DNA of 14,509 bases, taken from IMG/VR virus record IMGVR_UViG_2534681702_000004, positions 1 to 14,509 of that record. One strand, written 5' to 3'. This DNA comes from a virus. Taxonomy: Duplodnaviria > Heunggongvirae > Uroviricota > Caudoviricetes. This document shows, in pieces, positions 1,230-13,784 of this stretch; the first letter of the stretch is position 1, and each line of letters begins with the position of its first letter. The notes below the pieces were generated by a model, which was not told the origin of the DNA, searched no databases, and saw nothing but the letters and a program-made list of their open reading frames with translations. The position numbers and the translations under genes were made by a program.

Positions 1230-1577
1230 GGGCAAATCCAGCAGCAATAATAAGACGGCGTTTCAACAGCAAACCCTCAGGTGTTTCAAATAGCTGTTCT
1301 TTTTACGGAAATACTTATGAACTGGCTGGAATAAAGTGCAAGAAAATGTGACTACTATCTCATTTTTATCTGACATGATCTGTTGTCACTCGCTGCCAAA
1401 TTGTCGCGCTAAAGCTGATTAGCACGGTGATATTTGATACTCTGGCAGACAGCAGAAATAACGGATTTAACCTAATGATGAATGACGGTAAGCAACAATC
1501 TACCTTTTTGTTTCACGATTACGCGCAACACCACTGAGAACCGCCATGAACAAGGGCTTCATGATTTGTGATTTTAG

Positions 1578-1601
1578 TTTGGTACGCAATTTGGTACACA
1601 A
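1578..1601. repeat. Tandem direct repeat TTTGGTACGCAA / TTTGGTACACAA (2 x 12 bp, 11 of 12 identical)
   Basis: Read directly from the sequence in the non-coding stretch between IS2 and the tailspike gene. Confidence 0.6.
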
Positions 1602-1939
1602 CACAATTTTTACTTCAGCGGGTAGTCATCAAACTCACCATAACGAGCATCGTTAATGATGTATGTGATCACCACAAACATCACATCTGGACTAGTTCCG
1701 TTTTCATGCGCAGGTATTTGTTCACGCCTCCCTTTCTGCAACCCCTAAAGATGAGATTTTGGGGTTTTGGGATATCTTTTATCCGCAGTTCTCTATCCAT
1801 TATGCAAACCAGTAATGAACCATCACCGTGTGATAGTGAGGCATCTATCTGCCACGATAAGCGCAGAGAAATGATGCAATGGTGGGCGGACTGGATTGAT
1901 GAAAAGGTGGAGTGATCCGCCTTAACCACTATCGAAGAG

Positions 1940-2029: not shown

Positions 2030-4531
2030 CTATCTTTGGTATAACGATTCTTCAAGCTTTCTAATTCTTTCGAAAAGACCTCTCATTATAAATCTATCAA
2101 GCTCCTGATCTCTAAACTGCCAAAGATCACCAGCCGCTCTAATCAACTTCATCTCTCCATTCTTAACTAAGTTTCCAAATTCATCAATTTCAGTAACATA
2201 TTCAAATTCATCATCCCAAGCATCATAACCAATAAATCCGTATTTTTTCCAATCAAGATTATTCTCCTCAAGTATTGCAATAACTTTCTGAACAGTCGTT
2301 CCAGCATGCAGTCTTTTAGATTCATCATCAATCCAAGACCAAAAACCTAGAACTTCTGCAATCTTCATTGCGGCATTTATTTCATCAGCGGTCATACCTC
2401 TAACTGCTGTCTTGAGTCTTGCATCAGAACTTGATTGCGTACCTCCGGCAAAATATCCAACATTATATCTGTTGCTCGCGCGCCCCAAATTTTGGGTTGC
2501 ATCACCAGATGGATGCTGAGTTCCATCGGCTTTAAAAACATAACGATCACTTAAATCTGCAGAAGGAGAGCTTTTTAACGAAATGGTAATATCACCAATT
2601 GATGAAGGTGAAATATCACAACCAGAAAGAGTTGTTGCATTCCTCAGCATGAGATTTCTCTGCGGATGTGCATTAACAGGAATCACCTCTCCTTCCGTAT
2701 CTATAATTACCCCGCCACCGTTATCTATATAGTTTGCAGCAACATTTCCTGACACATCTCCGCTACCAGTCATAACTATCATAGAATCTGTGCAGTTAAC
2801 ACCATACCTTCTGTTGTTTTTCGAACTTGCATTATTAGCTGCTACTGTTGCGTTGTAAACAGAATAGATACCATCTATTACATTATCGCTAGATGTTCCA
2901 CCAGTGAAAGCTATGTTTCCACCATATGACGCTGATACTCCATTTCTGGCATTTAGATATGATCTACCGTTTTCGAAATTAACTTTTGATAACGCCCTGG
3001 CCTCAATACCATTTGTTGAGTTACCACACGCAACACCATTTGGCGCGCTTAACTCACTGTTATTAAATGACCAGAACCCATTCAACCCATTTCCTGAGCA
3101 TACAGATCCGTTGGCCTGAATCGCACCACCGATATCAGATATAATCCCATCTTCACCATTACCAGAGCAAACCATGAATTTTCCTCTGATATGAGCTCCT
3201 TCCGCGTAAATACCGCGCTTTCTATTAGATGATGAAGCTATAAAATTACATACAACACCTGCTCGACCAGAAGCAACAAATCCCTGCTCCCCCCACCCTG
3301 ATATAACAATATCAGGACCAATTGCTAAATTACCAGACATGTCAAATACTTTATTTGATGGATCTGGTTCATCAATTGTTATATCAGGCGTGGCAATAGT
3401 GAACCCATGCGCTCCAATTGTGCCTATAGATTCTGCTACCGAGTAATCACCAACAATGGCTACACCATCAATTGTATTAATACAATCACCACCTGACACG
3501 GCAAAACCATCACAACCAGTATATTTGAGAACCGACTTAATTATAGATACCGATCCTCCAGTTAATGTCGATTCAGGGAAGTTATCAAGATGGCAAGTAT
3601 TATTTACTGTAACATTTGCTCCAGAAACTGACAGTACTTTCCATCCTCCACAGTGCATGTGATATGCACCGGTTCCTGAAACGTCATGTCTAATTATGAT
3701 ATAATCACCAACAGAAACATTTGAAGCATCAGAAAGCGATATCGTTACAGAATAATTTTTCTTCGAACCAGCAACTGATACAAGTGATGTTATTGATGTT
3801 TCATATTTGACACCCTTAATTGTCAAATTATGGGCGCCTATACAACTAACAATGGTCTTTTCTGTAAAATATGAATAGCCAGGGGGAATATTAACTGTAA
3901 GCCGCCCCCTTAACTCACATCTTGAAAACAACTTAAATAATCCAGAAACATCTTTTATTGACGGGTTTGCAACAAACTCACCAGGAGGAATAATTATAGT
4001 TCCTACGTTTGAACTTAAGGCATTTATAATTGCATTTGTTATGCTGCTGTCATTTACAATGTAATCAGCTATGCTGATTGACTCAATCATTTTATCATGA
4101 ACAGTTCTTCTGTCTGACGACATGCCTGGTTGCTTTACGTTAACAAGGTTATCTCCAAGTCCATCCAATGGGCTTAAAAGTTGTGCACGTAGTTGATCTG
4201 GATCATACTTCAGCACATTAGGAAAATAGAACTGCTGCGCACCATACGCATCATAAACAGCCATAGAATGGCCTTGCACGGTAACGAATTTGGCAATCTG
4301 TCCGTTATATACTGGATACCCTGCGGCATTGATGACGATTGGCTGTGCAACAGGAACGTGAGAGCCGTCTTCGTTCTCCACATAGACCTGAATCTGGTTT
4401 TCAGGATTTACCGGGTCAGTGTCAATTTTACCGATATAAATTTTGCCATTGGCTACGGCTTTAAAAGAACGCGCCATAGTGAAGAGTTGCGAAGGCATGC
4501 TTACTACAACATTGGCTGTAATGTCTGTCAT
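2030..4531 (-). CDS. Mosaic tailspike: P22 gp9-type N-terminal head-binding domain (about aa 1-111), divergent beta-helix receptor-binding/depolymerase body, and C-terminal intramolecular-chaperone-like domain (about 2033-2428)
   Basis: The N-terminus [11 protein letters not shown]...[22 protein letters not shown]...ENEDGSH...[12 protein letters not shown]...VLKYDPDQ matches the P22 tailspike head-binding domain from recall; similarity stops after YDPDQ. The middle is Gly/Asn/Ser-rich with repeats typical of a parallel beta-helix. The C-terminus has SSSDARLK, resembling the serine autocleavage motif of endosialidase/K5-lyase-type chaperone domains. GGAG RBS 8 nt upstream of the ATG. Confidence 0.85.
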
Positions 4532-4589
4532 TTAATTTGCTCCAGATACAAGGAATCGCCGCAGCGTAGCTACGGTGAATTTTGGGCAT

Positions 4590-4612
4590 AAAAAAACCCA
4601 GCCGAAGCTGGG
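4590..4612 (-). terminator. Rho-independent terminator downstream of ant
   Basis: Minus-strand transcript reads CCCAGC-TTCG-GCTGGG followed by seven T; it sits between the ant stop and the tailspike start. Confidence 0.8.
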
Positions 4613-4631
4613 TCGTTGCGTTGGTTATCTG

Positions 4632-5534
4632 TCAGTAGTTATGTACTGAAGGAGGCAATTCTTTATTCTTAAGTCTCATCCATGCGGAAAGATTCGTTGG
4701 TCCGTCTGGCTCATTAATATCAACATCTCGTGTGTGGTTTATTAAAACGTCTCTCGCCATTCCGATAACATACGAGAATTCATGACCGTAGTCGTAGCAT
4801 CTGCCGGAATAGTTCGATTGAATTTGTTTTAGCGCCAGATACAGTTCGCGGAATAATGCCTGTGAGCGGTTGGCATAATCCCATAACCATACAAGGCTGT
4901 TTGCTTCTTTTGCAGAAAGCTCGTTGGTTTTCTTCTCTTGTTTGCCGATAAATTCACCTTCAAGCACTACCCTGTGGATGTACTCTACGGCTTGCGGTAT
5001 CTGAGATGCATCAAGCTCTTCAATACTTTCCACATTGAAACGCTGATGAATCATTGCATAAGCTTCTGGGTACATTAGATGCTTTTTGCTGACTAGCATA
5101 TTTACAGCATCACGAAGCGGAGTCCTGTCATCAACAGATGTTTTCTTACGTGCATTTTCTGCCTTTCCCTTTGTCCAGTAGTCATGCAGTACAGTAAAGC
5201 ATTCTTCCTGGTACTGAATCAGTTTATCACGGATGTCAGCACGAACTTTCTCAGGGTTGATGCTGAACAGCCATCCATTTAACTTCTTCAAAGGAAGGCA
5301 GAGTAGCTTACGAAGCTTCCCATCAGCGGCAACCATGTTCATATGAACACAGTTGAATTTGCTAATCTGCTTCATGAGTTTTGTTTGCTGCGTTGACCAG
5401 CTCATTCCAAGGTTTTCAACGATTGGCTTCATCGCAACATATGCAACTCCGGCAGCCATGGCGGTGATAATTTGCTGACCGTTGAATGGTACATAAGAGG
5501 TGTTCACTGCTTCTAAAATTGCTATACTATTCAT
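4632..5534 (-). CDS. ant: Antirepressor Ant (P22 immI), 300 aa
   Basis: [43 protein letters not shown]... matches P22 Ant from recall. ATG at 5534 has a GGAGAAAA RBS. The longer ORF in the track starts at a TTG at 5600 and is rejected. Confidence 0.85.
5501..5528 (+). promoter_or_regulatory. Candidate Psar promoter with extended -10 (TGcTATACT at 5520-5528) inside the 5' end of ant, reading antisense
   Basis: The -10 hexamer TATACT has an upstream TG. The weak -35-like TGTTCA sits at the right spacing. This places the start about 5536, just past the ant start codon. Confidence 0.5.
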
Positions 5535-5535
5535 G

Positions 5536-5604
5536 TTGGTTTTTCTCCACGGATTTACTGACAACCGAAGCCCTGACTGTTCCCGCAGTTGGGGCTTCAA
5601 CTTT
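5536..5604 (+). ncRNA. sar: sar-like antisense RNA (about 69 nt) covering the arc-ant intercistronic region and ant RBS
   Basis: P22 encodes a 68-69 nt antisense RNA in the arc-ant spacer. Here the spacer is 68 bp. A hairpin at 5567-5598 is followed by CUUU. Exact ends are inferred. Confidence 0.55.
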
Positions 5605-5764
5605 ACGCGCCAATGCGCCCTTCCTTCTTAAAGCTTTCCATTACTCTCTGATAAATCTCAGAGTTAACAGACCGACCATTCTCTTCCGCCACCTTGCGGA
5701 CCAAATCCAATACTTCTTTAGGCCACCGCAAATTGAACTGCGGCATCTTGCTCATTCCTTTCAT
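5603..5764 (-). CDS. arc: Arc repressor (ribbon-helix-helix), 53 aa
   Basis: [53 protein letters not shown] matches P22 Arc from recall with one substitution (R16K). The track ORF extends upstream into the operator and is trimmed to the ATG at 5764. Confidence 0.92.
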
Positions 5765-5780
5765 ATTCACCTCACAATAT

Positions 5781-5797
5781 AGGTCCACCGTGGACCT
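5781..5797. promoter_or_regulatory. Mnt operator (O_mnt), 17 bp palindrome
   Basis: AGGTCCACCGTGGACCT; its reverse complement AGGTCCACGGTGGACCT is the canonical P22 Mnt operator as recalled. Confidence 0.85.
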
Positions 5798-5806
5798 ATT
5801 GAGAAT

Positions 5807-5827
5807 ATAGTAGAGTGCTTCTATCAT
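5807..5827. promoter_or_regulatory. Arc operator (O_arc), 21 bp, overlapping Pant
   Basis: The reverse complement of 5807-5827 is ATGATAGAAGCACTCTACTAT, the canonical P22 Arc operator as recalled. Confidence 0.85.
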
Positions 5828-5854
5828 GTCAATACACTAACTTGGAGTGATGGC

Positions 5855-6106
5855 ATGGCTAGAGATGATCCGCACTTTAACTTCCGTATGCCTATGGAAG
5901 TAAGGGAGAAATTAAAATTCAGGGCGGAGGCGAATGGGAGATCAATGAACTCCGAGTTGTTACAAATCGTCCAAGATGCTCTATCAAAACCATCGCCTGT
6001 GACTGGATATCGCGACGATGCAGAACGACTCGCTGATGAGCAGTCAGAGCTTGTTAAGAAGATGGTATTTGATACGCTGAAGGATTTGTACAAAAAACCC
6101 ACCTGA
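5855..6106 (+). CDS. mnt: Mnt repressor (maintenance of lysogeny; represses Pant), 83 aa
   Basis: MARDDPHFNFRMPMEVREKLKFRAEANGRSMNSELLQIVQDALSKPSPVTGYRDDAERLADEQSELVKKMVFDTLKDLYKKPT matches P22 Mnt from recall. GGAG RBS 7 nt upstream. Confidence 0.92.
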   Translation: MARDDPHFNFRMPMEVREKLKFRAEANGRSMNSELLQIVQDALSKPSPVTGYRDDAERLADEQSELVKKMVFDTLKDLYKKPT

Positions 6107-6124
6107 AGGTGGGTCCTATTTATT
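6092..6124. terminator. Bidirectional rho-independent terminator between convergent mnt and the lipoprotein gene
   Basis: A6 - CCCACC TGAA GGTGGG - TCCTATTTATT. The mnt stop codon TGA lies in the loop. The minus strand has a U6 tract directly after the stem. Confidence 0.75.
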
Positions 6125-6542
6125 AGTCTTGCTTTGTTGATGGTATAAGAGATGCGTTTGCCTCTTTTGGCTTCAAGGTATACATCCCACCATTAAAAGG
6201 ATCTACAGCAAGCCAACCAATTAACCCACCAAACACAAGGTTTCCACCAATATACCAGCCATTAGCATTGGCTTTGATTGGCAGGGTAACTGGTTCGTAC
6301 CCATCCTTTTCCATAGTGATCTGGTAGCTCTTTTTGCCAAAATAACTACCATCTGACTTGGCAAGAGTTACTCCTTGCGGGGTCTTACCTTGCGCAACAA
6401 TCACGCCTGATTCGTCTTTTACCTTAAAGCTCGCACCGGAAGGATTGCTGTTCACTTGCACAAGCTGCGTTTCGTCACCAACAATAGTTGCGCACCCAGA
6501 TAACAATATAGCGCCAGCAACGACGCCAATAATCCTCTTCAT
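6123..6542 (-). CDS. Hypothetical prophage lipoprotein (lipobox LSGC), cargo gene in the sieA position
   Basis: MKRIIGVVAGAILLSGC is a typical signal peptidase II signal. The ORF is followed by a terminator. An alternative start (MEIDMKR...) lies 12 nt upstream at 6554. Function is unknown. Confidence 0.7.
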   Translation of the reverse strand: MKRIIGVVAGAILLSGCATIVGDETQLVQVNSNPSGASFKVKDESGVIVAQGKTPQGVTLAKSDGSYFGKKSYQITMEKDGYEPVTLPIKANANGWYIGGNLVFGGLIGWLAVDPFNGGMYTLKPKEANASLIPSTKQD

Positions 6543-6659
6543 ATCAATTTCCATATTTAAAAAACCGGAAACATCCTAATGACAAACCATTCAAATGTGA
6601 AGTAGGCAAAAGATGTTTACTTTTTTCATGGTATCCTGCTCAAAACTAAGGAGGTTGGC

Positions 6660-7049
6660 GTGAAGCAATTTCTTACTGCTATGTTCTTATTCATATCTTT
6701 TGGGGCTACAGCAGAGTGCTGGGTCGTTGGAGATATGCGCGGAATAAGCTATTCAGAACGAAATAATTTCCATCCGGAAGAAGATGGTTTTAGTGGAACA
6801 TTCATCATTAAGACAAACGGTGAAGATGCCAGCATCACATATTCTGGGACAGATGCGGGCGGCATGGCTTACAAAGCATTGTCTAAAAACTCCATCATAG
6901 GAATCGGCGCGAATGGCGAAACTCAACGCGTTATCGACTCATGGGTAATACATCCTACTGGAACAGTTTTAATGTCAAAAACCATTTCCGGTTATGGAAA
7001 TATGGATTCAACCAAAGCTTTTGTTGGAAAAGTAAAAAGAAAATGTTAG
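6660..7049 (+). CDS. Hypothetical secreted protein (Sec signal peptide with ATA/E cleavage site), cargo gene
   Basis: GTG start with a strong TAAGGAGG RBS at 6647-6654. The N-terminus MKQFLTAMFLFISFGATA is hydrophobic. The mature protein has an N-proximal Cys and a C-terminal Cys. Confidence 0.62.
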   Translation: MKQFLTAMFLFISFGATAECWVVGDMRGISYSERNNFHPEEDGFSGTFIIKTNGEDASITYSGTDAGGMAYKALSKNSIIGIGANGETQRVIDSWVIHPTGTVLMSKTISGYGNMDSTKAFVGKVKRKC

Positions 7050-7073
7050 CGATTGAATCCAATTTCCCATACG

Positions 7074-8912
7074 TTACTGCTGTGTTGCCTCAGTAGCAAA
7101 CAGCGGTCTGATGGCATTCGCAGCGTTATTTATCGCTCTTTCATAGGCTGGTGTTCCTGCTTTGGTGTTTGCCAAACGAAGAAGCATATTCCTTGCTGCT
7201 TTGGACTCATACAAGCGCATCATTGCACCAAAACCAGCCTCAAGCCCCATTGATACGCCAAGGGTCGCAGTTGCGCCAATCGTCCTTATCCTGTTGGCTT
7301 GCGATTGCCCCGTCTGAGTTACTACATTTGCGGTGTCTGACCTTGCTGTTTGCTGTAGAACTTCATGAAGAGCATCAAGCTCTTTCATGTGCTTTCCAGA
7401 AAAAATAGTGTTGTAAATTTCACCGCCTGACTGAGATTTCAGCTTATTAACTTCAGTGATGAACTTGGCTGGAGAGTCCCCGGTCTTTTCCGCTATTTTG
7501 CTGACGTAAGCTGCACGCATAGCATCTTTCCCCTTATCATCCAGTGCGCTCCAGATTCGTTTCACGTCAGATGGTTTTCTGCTTAATACAACGGTATTTA
7601 TAAGTTCAGGACTGGCTTCACTGCTTGCCTTGTTGAGCTTGTTGGCAATGTTTTTATTAAGCACCTTATTATAAACGTTTGCATAATCGGAATTTGCTTT
7701 AAGGTATTTTGCTGCGTCTGATGCACCGAGGTTTTTAGCAACTGCGTTACGAAGGTCTTTTGACATTGCATTCTCTACCATATTGGTAGCTGCTTTTGCC
7801 TGGTTGGGGAAGACCATAGCATCTCCCTGAACATTAGATCTAAATGCTGTTCTGTGCTGACGCAAGAGATCAAACGTAACATCCAAATCAGTTGCAGGGT
7901 TTGCTAATTCTTCACGTAGGTTACGCAAGGATGTAAGCAGGCTTTGATTGGCAGACGTCCCAAGCCGTTCCTGTCTTGCGATCGCTGTATTCAGAGCATT
8001 CATGGTATTTGTGGTATCAACTGCGGCATTACCCATTTTATTGGTGACGTCATTGATAACAGCGCCAGCGGCATCCTTCCGCCCCCTTAACGTGGTGGTC
8101 AGAGATTTCACCACATCATCAGGGTTGTACTCACCAAAACGGTCAAAATAATTGCTTACCAGCTTACTCCGCGTTGCATATTGCTCTGCTCGCTTTGAGC
8201 CCGTCCCGAGCAAAGCCCCCTCGGCATCCTGAGTAAGGCCGCGAGTGAAAGCATTTTTCGGCGGGATAACATCAGATGTCATTGGTGTCACGCCCATCGA
8301 TTCTGATGTGGCAATTTTCTTCGCCACTTCTGGCGCAATATCACCTTTTATAGCCGTTATTCCACGCCCTATTCCCTTTGCTGCTGCGGAAAGAACACCC
8401 TGAGCGGCAAGGTTAACTCCGGCATTTTTAGCTGCATTTTGTGCGAAATCGCCTTTCTGATTTGCGGCCTCTGCCAGCGATCCAATAGCCATGCTTCCTG
8501 CCGTTCCAACTCCTGGAACTAAATACCCACCAATTGTTTCACCGGCTTGTGCGTATGGGTCTGTCGGTTTGTCTACTGGACGATAAACATCATCCAAAAC
8601 TTTTGGCCCACCAAGCCCCTGACTGATTGCATTAATCAGACTTGCGCCACCCTGCAATACGTCAAATGGTATGTTTACCAGACCACGACCAGCCTGTTCT
8701 GCAATTTGCCCTGCACTTTGACCACCAGTGAGCCAATCGCCAGCTTGTTGCATCAATGATGGTTCTTCACGTACTGGTGCATTATTGGCCTGATTAACTG
8801 TTTGTTGCTGAACAACCTGACCAGCAAAATAATCATCAATGGCGGCTCCAATATCTTCCGTGCTCGTACCATCAGGGAAGGTAAATGTCTTACCGTTTGC
8901 AGTTACTTTCAT
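7074..8912 (-). CDS. DNA-transfer (ejection) protein, P22 gp16-like
   Basis: About 612 aa, starting [32 protein letters not shown], which resembles P22 gp16 from recall. Ala/Gly/Gln-rich composition. The start overlaps the upstream gene stop (TGATG). An alternative ATG lies at 8915. Position matches gene 16 in the P22 order 20-16-sieA-mnt-arc-ant-9. Confidence 0.72.
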
Positions 8913-9740
8913 CATTCCACCGTAAATTGAATGCCTGATTTTGAGGTATATGATCCAACCTGATTCCGTGGTTCTCCTGAAGGTGTCGAATCTTGTGCTG
9001 GCGCTGCGTCAGTATTCAATGACATATACCGCTTAACGGCACTCCCCAATGATTCACCTTTTTTAACATCCAACCCCAATATCTGACCGCCATTACGCGA
9101 TTGTCCAGGATTGCCATTCGCGCTCATCCACTCAGCTTTAAACTCATTAAACTGCGCGTTTCGTCGCTCAAGGTTTGCCATTGCATCAAGCCATCTTGCG
9201 ACCGTCTCAGGGTTATCCATGTCAGTTGGCGCACCCTGCCGAACGATCTCAACGTCTTTATCCGTTGCTGGGCCGGGAGGTAGGAATTTAAGAACCTGAC
9301 TGTTAACAAGGGCATTTTGGCGGATGCGCAAATCACGCAATGTCGTATCGCTTCCGGTAAGTTTTGCGAACATGTTCTGTGCGTTACCGAACAAACCTGT
9401 CGTTGGTTTTTCTGCTCTGAACTGTTGAGCAAGCGCACTCATAGAATTGGCTGAGTTTGATGATGCTGTGGCATTGTTTACAGCCGTCTCGATGCCTTTT
9501 TCCATGTTTACTGACAGCTTAGGTGCTTCACTAATCAACTGCTGAGCCTTTTCCTGCGCTTGCTGCATCTTAAACCCGAACTCTTGCTGATCCAGAGCCA
9601 AGCGTTGTGCTGCGATATTGTGCCCAGTCATTGCTGACTGATAGGAAAGGTTTTGCCCTCTCGCCTGAAGTGCTTCACCAGCCTGATTGCTGCGGATTGT
9701 CTCTGCCAGCCTGCCTCGGTCAATTTCACGACCAGCCATC
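8912..9740 (-). pseudogene. Ejection protein (gp20-like), 3' portion, separated from its 5' portion by IS629
   Basis: The ORF continues in frame with the 11051-11283 fragment once the IS and one ATC copy are removed (352 aa total). The stop overlaps the gp16-like start. Confidence 0.6.
9738..9740. repeat. Target-site duplication ATC (left copy) of the IS629 insertion
   Basis: ATC immediately flanks both IS termini (9738-9740 and 11051-11053). Confidence 0.75.
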
Positions 9741-9782
9741 TGAACCGCCCCGGGTTTCCTGGAGAGTATTTTATCTGTGAAC

Positions 9783-10673
9783 TCAGGCTGCCAGATCATT
9801 ATTTCCGATGGAAGCATAATAAGCTTTTTCTGCTTCTGCCGGAGGAATATGGCCCAGCCTTTCCAGCAATCGTCGATTGTTATACCAGTCCACCCACGTT
9901 AGTGTGGCCAGTTCCACTTCTGTCCGGTTTTTCCAGCTCTTACGGTGTATTACCTCCGCTTTGTAAAGACCATTGATGCTCTCAGCCATCGCGTTGTCAT
10001 ACGAGTCGCCAGTACTCCCTGTTGATGCCAGTAATCCGGCTTCCTTAAGCCGCTGCGTGTAGGCCAGCGATACATACTGAGAACCTTTATCACTGTGATG
10101 GATTGTGCCGGACGGCCGACGGGCCCACAACGCCTGCTCCAGTGCATCCAGCACGAATGTTGTTTCCATGGATGATGAGACCTGCCATCCCACGATGTAT
10201 CCGGCGAACACATCAATGATGAACGCCACATAAACGAAGCCCTGCCATGTGCTTACCCAGGTAAAATCAGCCACCCACAACTGGTCTGGACGTTCTGCCA
10301 CGAACTGACGGTTTACGCGGTCGCATGCGGCAACGGCTTTCCGGCTGACGGTAGTGCGGACCTTTTTCCCCCGGAGAACACCGGCAAGTCCCATAACTGC
10401 CATGAGACGTGCCACAGTGCATCTGGCCACTCTGATACCTTCCCGTAACAACTGACGCCAGACTTTACGCACACCGTATACCTGGTGATTTTCATCGTAT
10501 ACGCGCTGTATCTCTTTCTTCAGCCAGTCATCGTGCTGCGCACGGGCACTGCGTTTATCCGGATGATGTCGCTGTTGCTGACAATGGTAATACGTTGACG
10601 GGGCAATATGCAGTTCGCTACATACCGGTCCGACCCCGTACTGCTCACGCAGCTTATCCAGCAGTGGCATCAT
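9783..10673 (-). CDS. IS629 transposase OrfB (DDE integrase domain)
   Basis: 296 aa ...[50 protein letters not shown]...[10 protein letters not shown]...[15 protein letters not shown]... matches IS629 OrfB from recall. Confidence 0.9.
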
Positions 10674-10996
10674 TTTTTCCAGAGGCGGTCGAACTCCGCC
10701 TTCGCAAAATAAGCGGAAGCCTGGCGAAGGATATCGTTACTGCGGCGCAGTTCACGATTTTCACGTTCCAGCTCTTTCAGACGCTGACGTTCAGCGCTGG
10801 TGAGCCCACCATCACCGCCCCCGGTATCCCGCTCATGCTGGCGAACCCAGACACGCAGAGTCTCCGGCGTACAGCCAATCTTTGGGGCAATGGAACAAAT
10901 TGCCGCCCACTGTGAGTCATATTCATCCTGACTTTCCAGAACCATACGAATCGCCCGCTGACGGACTTCGGGGGAAAAACGAGTATTTTTAGTCAT
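10670..10996 (-). CDS. IS629 transposase OrfA (HTH / leucine zipper)
   Basis: 108 aa [61 protein letters not shown]... matches IS629 OrfA from recall. An A6 run sits at the orfA/orfB overlap. Confidence 0.9.
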
Positions 10997-11050
10997 CCTG
11001 TTTACCTCTTTCTCAGGGAGTTTAGTCTCCAGGATTTCCGGGGCGGTTCA

Positions 11051-11482: not shown

Positions 11483-13784
<2,302 letters not shown>

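Follow-up and report, generated by a model that had tools for sequence, protein, structure and literature searches.

A complete epsilon34-like immunity I module in a degraded P22-like prophage remnant of Escherichia coli

The window that we analyzed (the whole 14,509-nucleotide stretch of DNA) is a P22-like prophage remnant in the dacD–sbcB interval of E. coli, and it contains a complete P22-type immunity I (immI) module, that is, mnt, the Mnt and Arc operators (Omnt and Oarc), arc, sar, and ant, at positions 4595–6114 (Table 1). We consider it very probable that this is an ordinary complete immI module (an 'ant moron') in its epsilon34 variant, a passive passenger of a recently degraded dacD–sbcB remnant in a diarrheal E. 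coli lineage. Its intactness is then explained by the very short time since the decay and by the position of the module in a right-end block that was spared by the deletion; no benefit to the host need be invoked. immI is a classic subject of phage genetics that dates back to the 1970s–80s, and the module described here is already known: it has been described for epsilon34, its sar RNA is in Rfam, and RefSeq names Ant and two Arc-family proteins at the locus. The significance of the analysis extends little beyond correct annotation, and its useful results are the negative ones.

The coordinates of the operators and promoters were obtained by projecting the P22 feature table (BK000583) onto the window. 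Pant and Pmnt are divergent, overlap, and are located between arc and mnt; the P22 features map to 5781–5832 with 0 mismatches, and a promoter scan that is independent of the BK000583 mapping places both divergent promoters at identical coordinates. Both operators had been predicted to match those of P22, and they are base-for-base identical. Omnt has a 17-bp symmetric core, AGGTCCACCGTGGACCT; when the T at 5780 is included, the palindrome (which was checked) is 21 bp. Oarc is located between the −35 and −10 elements of Pant and covers the −10 element of Pmnt. In a three-way alignment of positions 5480–5880 (window, epsilon34, and P22) the mean column identity is 98%, and megablast against epsilon34 gives 98.4% over 1692 bases (E-value 0); a chance match is no concern at such sequence identity. 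The ends of the module also have counterparts, that is, the terminator downstream of ant is in the same place as the annotated ant terminators of P22 and epsilon34, and a rho-independent terminator is annotated in epsilon34 at the place homologous to the hairpin at the end of mnt.

The arc-ant operon on the minus strand, the divergent promoters, the operators, the Arc, Mnt, and Ant domains, and the location are all those of immI; thus, the original prediction of a complete P22-type immI within a degraded prophage holds, with all of the elements at or beside their predicted coordinates. The immI of P1 and a ribbon-helix-helix (RHH) toxin-antitoxin pair were considered as identities for the module and were ruled out by the Repressor_Mnt and Arc matches and by the operators; Mnt has a weak FitA-like RHH Pfam match that is due only to the common RHH fold.

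Table 1. Coordinates of the immI module and of neighboring features in the window.
Feature	Coordinates	Strand	Description and basis
Tailspike gene, intact, 833 aa	2030..4531	−	Pfam Head_binding (1.4e-66) and Peptidase_S74; RefSeq 'phage tailspike protein'
Intrinsic terminator after ant	4595..4614	−	8-bp stem, T-run; terminator scan
ant, antirepressor, 300 aa	4632..5534	−	Uninterrupted ORF; epsilon34 allele
Psar	5500..5528	+	Weak −35 GTGTTC, 17-bp spacer, extended −10 TGcTATACT (5520-5528); from P22 BK000583 Psar feature
sar antisense RNA, 68-70 nt, predicted	5535..5604	+	Rfam RF00262 at 5535-5602; 5' stem-loop and 14-bp terminator hairpin
arc, ribbon-helix-helix repressor, 53 aa	5603..5764	−	Uninterrupted ORF; P22 Arc with R16K
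Mnt operator (Omnt)	5781..5803		Mapped from BK000583 'mnt operator' feature; 0 differences from P22
Pmnt (TTGAGA, 17 bp, TATCAT)	5799..5827	+	Promoter scan 10/12; P22 Pmnt feature, 0 differences
Pant, arc-ant operon promoter (TTGACA, 17 bp, TATATT)	5804..5832	−	Promoter scan 11/12; P22 Pant feature, 0 differences
Arc operator (Oarc), 21 bp	5807..5827		ATGATAGAAGCACTCTACTAT on − strand; P22 'arc operator' feature, 0 differences
mnt, maintenance repressor, 83 codons	5855..6106	+	Uninterrupted ORF; P22 Mnt with N54D and T82P
Terminator-like hairpin at mnt end	6097..6114	+	Terminator scan
Rest of 'ant moron'	6123..7049		Two ORFs; context
Lipoprotein-like ORF	6123-6542/6554	−	epsilon34 gp15 homolog
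Hypothetical ORF	6660-7049	+	In position of epsilon34 gene 14 (HK620 hkcB homolog)
Gene-16-type ejection protein, intact, 613 aa	7074..8915	−	RefSeq 'P22-gp16 family phage DNA ejection protein'
IS1203/IS629 within truncated gene-20 homolog	9742..11050	−	blastn against L003
IS100 (istA/istB) splitting integrase gene	11832..13784	−	blastn against uninterrupted int of CUVM3; RefSeq annotation

Arc matches P22 Arc at 52 of 53 residues, as expected from the prediction of one substitution; it is identified by Pfam Arc (PF03869; 9.8e-31, 105.8 bits) and aligns over its full length (residues 1–53) with PDB 1arq/1par (E = 5e-31). The window and epsilon34 Arcs differ only at residue 43, so K16 is also present in epsilon34 Arc. 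Mnt had been predicted to be the P22 version; 81 of its 83 residues match P22 Mnt, so this is correct except for two substitutions, and one residue differs from epsilon34 Mnt. It is matched by Pfam Arc (PF03869; 3.9e-30) and Repressor_Mnt (PF11423; 7.2e-19), and it is composed of an RHH N-terminal domain and a C-terminal tetramerization helix (PDB 1mnt, E = 1.2e-45; 1qey for the C-terminal domain). Ant was also expected to match the P22 version; instead, it is the epsilon34 allele (99.3% identity to epsilon34 Ant, 86.0% to P22 Ant), with 26 of the 42 residues (of 300) that differ from P22 Ant located within residues 21–80. RefSeq names this protein 'phage antirepressor Ant' (WP_001084293.1), and its Pfam matches are P22_AR_N (PF10547; 2.9e-45) and P22_AR_C (PF10548; 2.3e-28); a comparison of Ant with solved structures found no match. 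The Pfam domains of Arc, Mnt, and Ant are all full length.

The spacer between arc and ant had been predicted to be 68 bp and to have an antisense extended −10 promoter and a hairpin that would give a sar-like RNA at 5536–5604; all three are borne out. The spacer (5535–5602) has the same length in P22, and the leader of ant is CCGTGGAGAAAAACCAAC, followed by the ATG. On the plus strand, the spacer matches Rfam RF00262 over the full length of the model (positions 1–68 of 68) with 95.6 bits (cut-off 43; E = 7e-20); the RNA is predicted to fold into two hairpins at its energy minimum (−29.4 kcal/mol, z = −4.78). Two bases differ from P22 sar, both in hairpin loops, and both changes are common to epsilon34. 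The RNA is complementary to the spacer, including the Shine-Dalgarno sequence of ant (GGAG). In all of the variants that were examined, sar was detected beside arc-ant. Psar is located within the first codons of ant; its −35 element differs from that of P22 (GTGTTA) by one base, which is the same base in epsilon34, and the extended −10 element is retained. Psar and the sar terminator were identified by homology and Rfam; neither was flagged by the generic promoter/terminator scan, as expected from an extended −10 element with a weak −35 element and from a short T-run, exactly as in P22.

Descriptions of how mnt, arc, sar, and ant work are available (PMC11016777); the steps that follow are drawn from P22 genetics and biochemistry. 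Transcription of arc and then ant would start at Pant (minus strand); Arc would bind to the 21-bp Oarc and shut down both Pant and Pmnt, so the burst of Ant would be limited. Mnt would be expressed from the divergent, overlapping Pmnt and, when bound at Omnt over the start site of Pant, would keep arc-ant off in the lysogen and favor its own promoter. The sar RNA would start inside ant at Psar and end at the hairpin that adjoins the arc stop codon; by pairing with the spacer, including the ribosome-binding site of ant, it would block the translation of ant. Ant, if made, would inactivate lambdoid CI/C2-type repressors by noncovalent binding. The near-identity to P22 and epsilon34 suggests that Mnt and Arc would repress Pant and that Ant would inactivate C2-type repressors in the same manner; likewise, sequence identity suggests that sar, mnt, and ant would be transcribed in the source strain. 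By analogy with P22 lysogens, the module in the remnant probably is locked in the Mnt-on, ant-off state that was inherited from the lysogen; Ant probably would have no cognate repressor on which to act (immC is gone; vide infra).

The module is flanked by the gene-16 homolog and the tailspike gene, that is, it occupies the location of the 'ant moron' in the late operon. In P22 (Sauer et al., 1983; X01916; BK000583), immI likewise has ejection gene 16 on one side and the tailspike gene on the other, and its Omnt, Oarc, Pant, and Pmnt show 100% identity with those in the window; however, P22 has orf59a and sieA downstream of mnt, whereas the window has the lipoprotein-like and hypothetical ORFs, neither of which has a Pfam match. 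The ant moron of epsilon34 and its 'apparently functional immunity I region' have been described (Villafane et al., 2008; PMC2629481). The epsilon34 module (genes 16 [mnt], 17 [arc], sar, and 18 [ant], plus 14 and 15; EU570103) has the same gene order and spacing as that in the window, including the gp15 homolog downstream of mnt and the ORF in the position of gene 14; it also has the same Psar and sar variants, and Ant, Arc, Mnt, sar, Psar, arcO, and Pmnt/Pant are all annotated in its record. The two differ in host (Salmonella Anatum for epsilon34, E. coli for the window), in one base of the outer half-site of Omnt (P22-like in the window, G in epsilon34), in the tailspike (that in the window matches the head-binding domain of the epsilon34 tailspike but not beyond), and in context, because the module in the window is in a remnant without the immC, replication, lysis, and head genes.

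The remnant carries IS2, IS100, and IS1203, and a deletion junction maps to 11275/11407. Everything that lay between the gene-20 fragment and an xis-like HTH gene, amounting to tens of kb of the prophage, has been lost; immC (the primary immunity region) is missing, as are the genes for replication, lysis, and the head. The structural and integrase genes had been predicted to be disrupted by IS elements; this is the case for int (IS100) and for the gene-20 homolog (IS1203/IS629), but the tailspike gene and the gene-16 homolog are intact. The IS1203/IS629 element is absent from eight otherwise near-identical genomes, has a 4-base overlap at its junction (blastn against L003), and contains an ALIL frameshift pseudoknot at 10599–10715. 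The 5-bp overlap at the IS100 junction suggests a target duplication.

Eight complete genomes of diarrheal E. coli isolates carry the same remnant without the extra IS1203/IS629, with 99.9–100% identity over it; strains E1433 and FORC_031 are examples of carriers. A search of 5426 complete E. coli genomes found the full immI module in 104, among which remnant versus complete status was inspected at eight loci. The carriers include apparently complete prophages at argW, for example those of ETEC1722 and VE-F5, unlike the remnant in the window; the VE-F5 prophage has the same Mnt accession as the remnant. The O111:H8 strain 8234 has a nearly identical prophage at the same sbcB–dacD site that is near-full-length, whereas the copy in the window is deleted and has three IS elements; the O111:H8 prophage retains int and the LexA-family repressor, cro, cII, replication, nin, Q, lysis, terminase, portal, and capsid genes. 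Only 3 of 4942 bases differ between the two (positions 4800–9741); two of these are substitutions in immI, the gene-16 homologs differ by one base, and Arc (WP_000677939.1) and Mnt (WP_000090241.1) have the same RefSeq accessions in both. Three other dacD–sbcB remnants have different internal deletions; each retains immI as well as the whole right-end block, from the tailspike to the ejection genes.

The original prediction also suggested that usefulness to the host is the reason that the switch has been preserved; this is not supported, and we consider such selection in the remnant, through a benefit to the host or to other resident prophages, to be unlikely. It could act by two routes: Ant could induce co-resident lambdoid or P22-like prophages, or Mnt from the remnant could repress the Pant of superinfecting immI phages in trans, so the resident prophages would be protected. 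In favor of selection, every ORF and site of immI is intact; P22 Ant has been reported to act against the repressors of the phages L, lambda, and 21, with cross-prophage coupling proposed (PMC3121763), and deletion of immI alters the lysogeny frequency of P22 (PMC11016777). However, the remnant is young: with only three substitutions in ~5 kb relative to the near-full-length prophage, an intact module is the neutral expectation (the probability for the 1317 coding bases of immI is ~0.96 with substitutions alone and ~0.85 with an assumed indel rate). Part of the similarity to the O111:H8 prophage could be due to prophages having recombined recently, and not to a recent common ancestor. In addition, all of the neighbors that were spared by the IS elements and the deletion are equally intact, including the tailspike, the gene-16 ejection protein, and the two moron ORFs; where the head genes are lacking, neither the tailspike gene nor the gene-16 ejection gene serves any evident purpose. 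While Mnt is present, ant is also expected to be silent.

The carriers do not favor selection either. The eight that share the remnant are so nearly identical that there is essentially no post-decay variation from which selection could be read, and an analysis of dN/dS on the remnant branches was rejected as powerless because immI has only two substitutions. The window and the three other dacD–sbcB remnants, with their different internal deletions, all keep the mnt-arc-sar-ant module, which could be a hint of selection, but the tailspike and ejection genes are kept equally; because the other remnants retain the whole right-end block, the retention of immI is positional and not specific for immI, although with eight loci inspected this is anecdotal. 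The neutral reading has its control in two comparisons, one with the neighboring genes and one with a near-full-length relative: an intact regulatory module in a prophage riddled with IS elements is not evidence of domestication when the prophage is only ~0.06% diverged from such a relative.

It is also quite improbable that the immI of the remnant is an active trans-regulator of other phages in this E. coli lineage, either by Mnt silencing an incoming Pant or by the epsilon34-type Ant occasionally escaping from Mnt and sar and inducing heteroimmune resident prophages. If it were, the silencing of incoming immI phages by Mnt would shield resident lambdoid prophages from antirepression, a 'dead' prophage would still influence lysogeny, and the recurrence of immI at dacD–sbcB would reflect selection, not position. 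The idea that Ant could affect co-resident prophages is plausible, but it has already been raised for P22 Ant (Lemire et al., 2011; PMC3121763); if demonstrated, the trans-acting scenario would add modestly to the antirepressor crosstalk that is already known among prophages. The trans-acting antirepressors of Gifsy/Fels prophages (PMC3121763) likewise are encoded outside of the primary immunity region and can target repressors made by other prophages in the cell; however, they are controlled by LexA and required for induction, whereas Ant in the window would be controlled by Mnt, Arc, and sar. The likeness is one of concept.

Finally, the module could be intact in appearance only and functionally dead as the result of its substitutions relative to P22 (R16K in Arc, N54D and T82P in Mnt, A-to-C in the −35 element of Psar, and the diverged N-terminal domain in an Ant that differs at 42 of 300 residues), but this is very unlikely because the operators and promoters are unchanged, the Pfam domains are full length, Ant is nearly identical to epsilon34 Ant, K16 in Arc, the C in Psar, and both loop changes in sar are also found in epsilon34, a viable temperate phage, and the same Arc and Mnt accessions recur in near-full-length or full-length E. 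coli prophages.

The P22-type immunity I module (immI; 4595–6114) in this decayed P22-like prophage is complete, that is, all of the cis elements and proteins of the immI logic are present in near-identical form. In searches of solved structures, the Arc repressor structures 1arq/1par match the 53-aa protein over its full length (E = 5e-31) and the Mnt structure 1mnt matches the 83-aa protein (E = 1.2e-45); no relative of Ant was found among them. In a megablast of 4500–6200, identity was 98.4% to Salmonella phage epsilon34 (1692 bases) and 90% to P22 (1552 bases), and Ant, Arc, Mnt, and sar are annotated beneath the match in both phages. The original prediction was that Arc (with one substitution), Mnt, and Ant are the P22 versions. 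This is exact for Arc (R16K) and nearly so for Mnt (N54D and T82P), but Ant is the epsilon34 allele, with 99.3% identity (two residues differ) to epsilon34 Ant vs 86.0% to P22 Ant (42/300 residues differ, 26 of them in residues 21–80).

Features of the remnant in window coordinates; differences are relative to P22.
Feature	Position	Strand	Remarks
IS2	from base 1		
HumD/UmuD-like pseudogene fragment	~1568–1915		between IS2 and tailspike; frameshifted, internal stop (RefSeq)
Tailspike	2030–4531	-	intact
ant	4632–5534	-	300 codons; Pfam P22_AR_N + P22_AR_C (antirepressor domains)
Psar	5500–5528		1 difference: -35 GTGTTC vs GTGTTA
sar	5535–5604		2 differences, both in hairpin loops
arc	5603–5764	-	53 codons; Pfam Arc
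arc–mnt intergenic region	5765–5854		90 bp; 1 difference (5780, just outside Omnt)
Mnt operator (Omnt)	5781–5803		0 differences
Pmnt	5799–5827	+	0 differences; TTGAGA-17-TATCAT in consensus scan
Pant	5804–5832	-	0 differences; TTGACA-17-TATATT in consensus scan
Arc operator (Oarc)	5807–5827		0 differences
mnt	5855–6106	+	83 codons; Pfam Arc + Repressor_Mnt
Lipoprotein-like ORF	6123–6554	-	RefSeq start 6542
Hypothetical ORF	6660–7049	+	
Gene-16-type ejection protein	7074–8915	-	intact
Gene-20 homologue, 3' fragment	from 8912		split by IS1203
IS1203/IS629	9742–11050		
Deletion junction	between 11275 and 11407		
Small HTH gene	11483–11674		xis-like
int C-terminal stub	between HTH gene and IS100		
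IS100	11832–13784		5-bp overlap at junctions
Remainder of int	after IS100, to window end		

Features annotated in P22 (curated record BK000583) were mapped to the window via a gap-free alignment and the differences then counted; both operators are unchanged, as predicted. A consensus promoter scan, independent of the mapping, places Pant and Pmnt at exactly the mapped coordinates. The predicted arc–ant spacer measures 68 bp, the same as in P22, and the antisense promoter and hairpin of a sar-like RNA were also recovered: Psar retains the extended -10 TGcTATACT, the Rfam sar model RF00262 matches 5535–5602 over its whole length (95.6 bits vs a gathering score of 43), and folding of the sar strand gives the 5' stem-loop and 14-bp terminator hairpin that are expected (-29.4 kcal/mol, z = -4.78). 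The ant Shine-Dalgarno GGAG, in CCGTGGAGAAAAACCAAC followed by ATG, lies within the sar-complementary stretch. Arc K16, the Psar base, and both sar loop substitutions recur in the viable temperate phage epsilon34, and E. coli prophages of full or near-full length carry proteins with the RefSeq accessions of the window Arc and Mnt; cryptic inactivation is therefore disfavoured. With T at 5780 (P22: C), the Mnt-operator palindrome spans 21 rather than 17 bp (ATAGGTCCAC-C-GTGGACCTAT); in epsilon34, the outermost base of one half-site of the 17-bp Mnt operator is instead G.

For the mechanism, PMC2629481 and PMC11016777 cite as primary P22 papers Sauer 1983, Susskind 1980, Liao and Wu 1987, and Schaefer and McClure 1997. 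By analogy with P22, arc and ant would be transcribed from Pant; Arc bound at Oarc would repress both Pant and Pmnt, and Mnt bound at Omnt would repress Pant in the lysogen, thereby favouring Pmnt. The sar RNA would pair across the ant ribosome-binding site and block translation of ant, the product of which is expected to bind and inactivate C2/CI-type repressors. Judged from sequence, the elements are probably expressed, with the remnant in an Mnt-on, ant-off state. This mechanism is known from P22 work reviewed in PMC2629481 and PMC11016777, and the targets of Ant include the repressors of L, lambda, and 21 (PMC3121763). A trans effect of the remnant's own Mnt or Ant on the host's other phages is considered very unlikely.

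Every sequence-testable hallmark of a P22-type immI and of the Rfam sar is found in the module, which is the epsilon34 variant of the ‘ant moron’ (immI plus adjoining genes between ejection gene 16 and the tailspike gene) described in 2008. RefSeq already names a ‘phage antirepressor Ant’ and two ‘Arc family DNA-binding proteins’ at the locus, and Lemire et al. 2011 (PMC3121763) had already raised induction of co-resident prophages for P22 Ant. The intactness of the module is the sole aspect of the finding that is not textbook. Of 5426 complete E. coli genomes, 104 have the full module (at least 80% coverage) and 1233 have partial matches, mostly ant domains; in two of the genomes sampled, ETEC1722 and VE-F5, the module belongs to a P22-like prophage at argW that is apparently complete.

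The window is E. coli DNA. Over 91% of its length it is 99.9–100% identical to the complete genomes of eight isolates from human diarrhoea (E1433, E1535, E1620, 254D-1, 360D-1, E2386, FORC_031, and LR883050), and the unmatched 9% is the IS1203/IS629 copy, found only in the window. In E1433, the region is flanked by dacD and sbcB. From the gene-20 fragment up to the HTH gene everything is missing, namely the remaining virion genes and the lysis, Q, nin, replication, immC, and early-left genes; with this central region gone, the gene-20 homologue cut by IS1203, and int cut by IS100, the predicted description is right: a degraded prophage in which IS elements disrupt structural and integrase genes. 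The deletion joins the gene-20 fragment to sequence upstream of the HTH gene; the ~131 bp that separate the homology blocks have no match at either the O111:H8 or the CUVM3 locus, and no IS flanks the large deletion in the present sequence. IS1203/IS629 belongs to the IS3 family (orfA/orfB, with an Rfam ALIL frameshift pseudoknot at 10599–10715); the 4-base overlap at its junction suggests a target duplication, and IS activity is ongoing in the window's lineage. The HumD/UmuD-like fragment occupies the place of the gtr/acyltransferase conversion genes of related prophages.

At the same site, O111:H8 strain 8234 has a near-full-length P22-like prophage that comprises int, HTH, and early-left genes, a LexA-family repressor, cro and cII, replication, nin, Q, and lysis genes, terminase, portal, capsid, and ejection genes, immI, and a tailspike, with IS1203 inserted at two places. 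Window 4190–9741 aligns with it gap-free with 42 differences, 39 of which are left of 4800 (tailspike N-terminus/head-binding domain, tailspike–ant intergenic region, and ant 3' end); the 4190–4800 cluster is a sharp recombination (mosaic) boundary. Only three differences occur in 4800–9741 (ant 5119; mnt 6067, synonymous; gene 16 7484). When this whole divergence (6.1e-4 per site) is charged to the remnant branch, 0.8 substitutions are expected in the 1317 coding bases of immI; nonsense or start-loss changes are 5.5% of the possible substitutions, so the neutral probability of no knock-out substitution is 0.96, or ~0.85 for an intact immI with indels at an assumed 0.15 times the substitution rate. 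An intact immI is the neutral expectation. The similarity to strain 8234 could stem partly from recombination; if so, recent exchange with functional phages again accounts for the intactness.

The proposal that the switch was kept because it is useful to the host is not borne out: the neutral probability is high, its neighbours (tailspike, gene-16 homologue, and the two moron ORFs) are intact to the same degree, and retention is positional. A remnant without head genes has no evident use for virion proteins. At dacD–sbcB, different E. coli lineages have at least four differently deleted P22-like remnants (those of the window, CUVM3, E54, and F719), each of which lacks the central head, lysis, and immC genes and retains the tailspike-to-ejection block. 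A gene-10 homologue fragment is fused to the nin region in E54, a gp4 fragment to a ral fragment in F719, and a tail-needle gene fragment to early-left genes near eag in CUVM3. All three retain mnt-arc-sar-ant (sar detected), and in all three the tailspike-to-ejection block, with gtr genes where present, is whole. Judging by the eight related loci inspected, retention therefore follows position at the right end of the prophage, where the lethal central genes are distant, and is not specific to immI. The eight genomes that carry the window remnant are near-identical over it, so they provide essentially no post-decay variation. CUVM3 and F719 have another allele for the body of ant, with homology preserved over 5519–6050 (ant start, sar, arc, the operators, and most of mnt). 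The CUVM3 remnant looks like an F719-type remnant after further deletion, since the two have the same RefSeq protein accessions for Ant, Arc, Mnt, and a Rap1a/Tai-like protein.

The product of the 6123–6554 ORF, a homologue of epsilon34 gp15, has an N-terminus (MKRIIGVVAGAILLSGC) that resembles a lipoprotein signal with a lipobox; it has no Pfam match, and RefSeq names it ‘peptidase associated/transthyretin-like domain-containing’. The position of the ORF corresponds to that of sieA in P22, which makes it a candidate moron for superinfection exclusion or conversion. The tailspike is a mosaic: its P22-type head-binding domain (aa 1–113) is common to epsilon34 and the O111:H8 prophage, most of its body matches strain E54 only (~94%), and its C-terminus carries a Peptidase_S74 intramolecular-chaperone domain of the endosialidase type.
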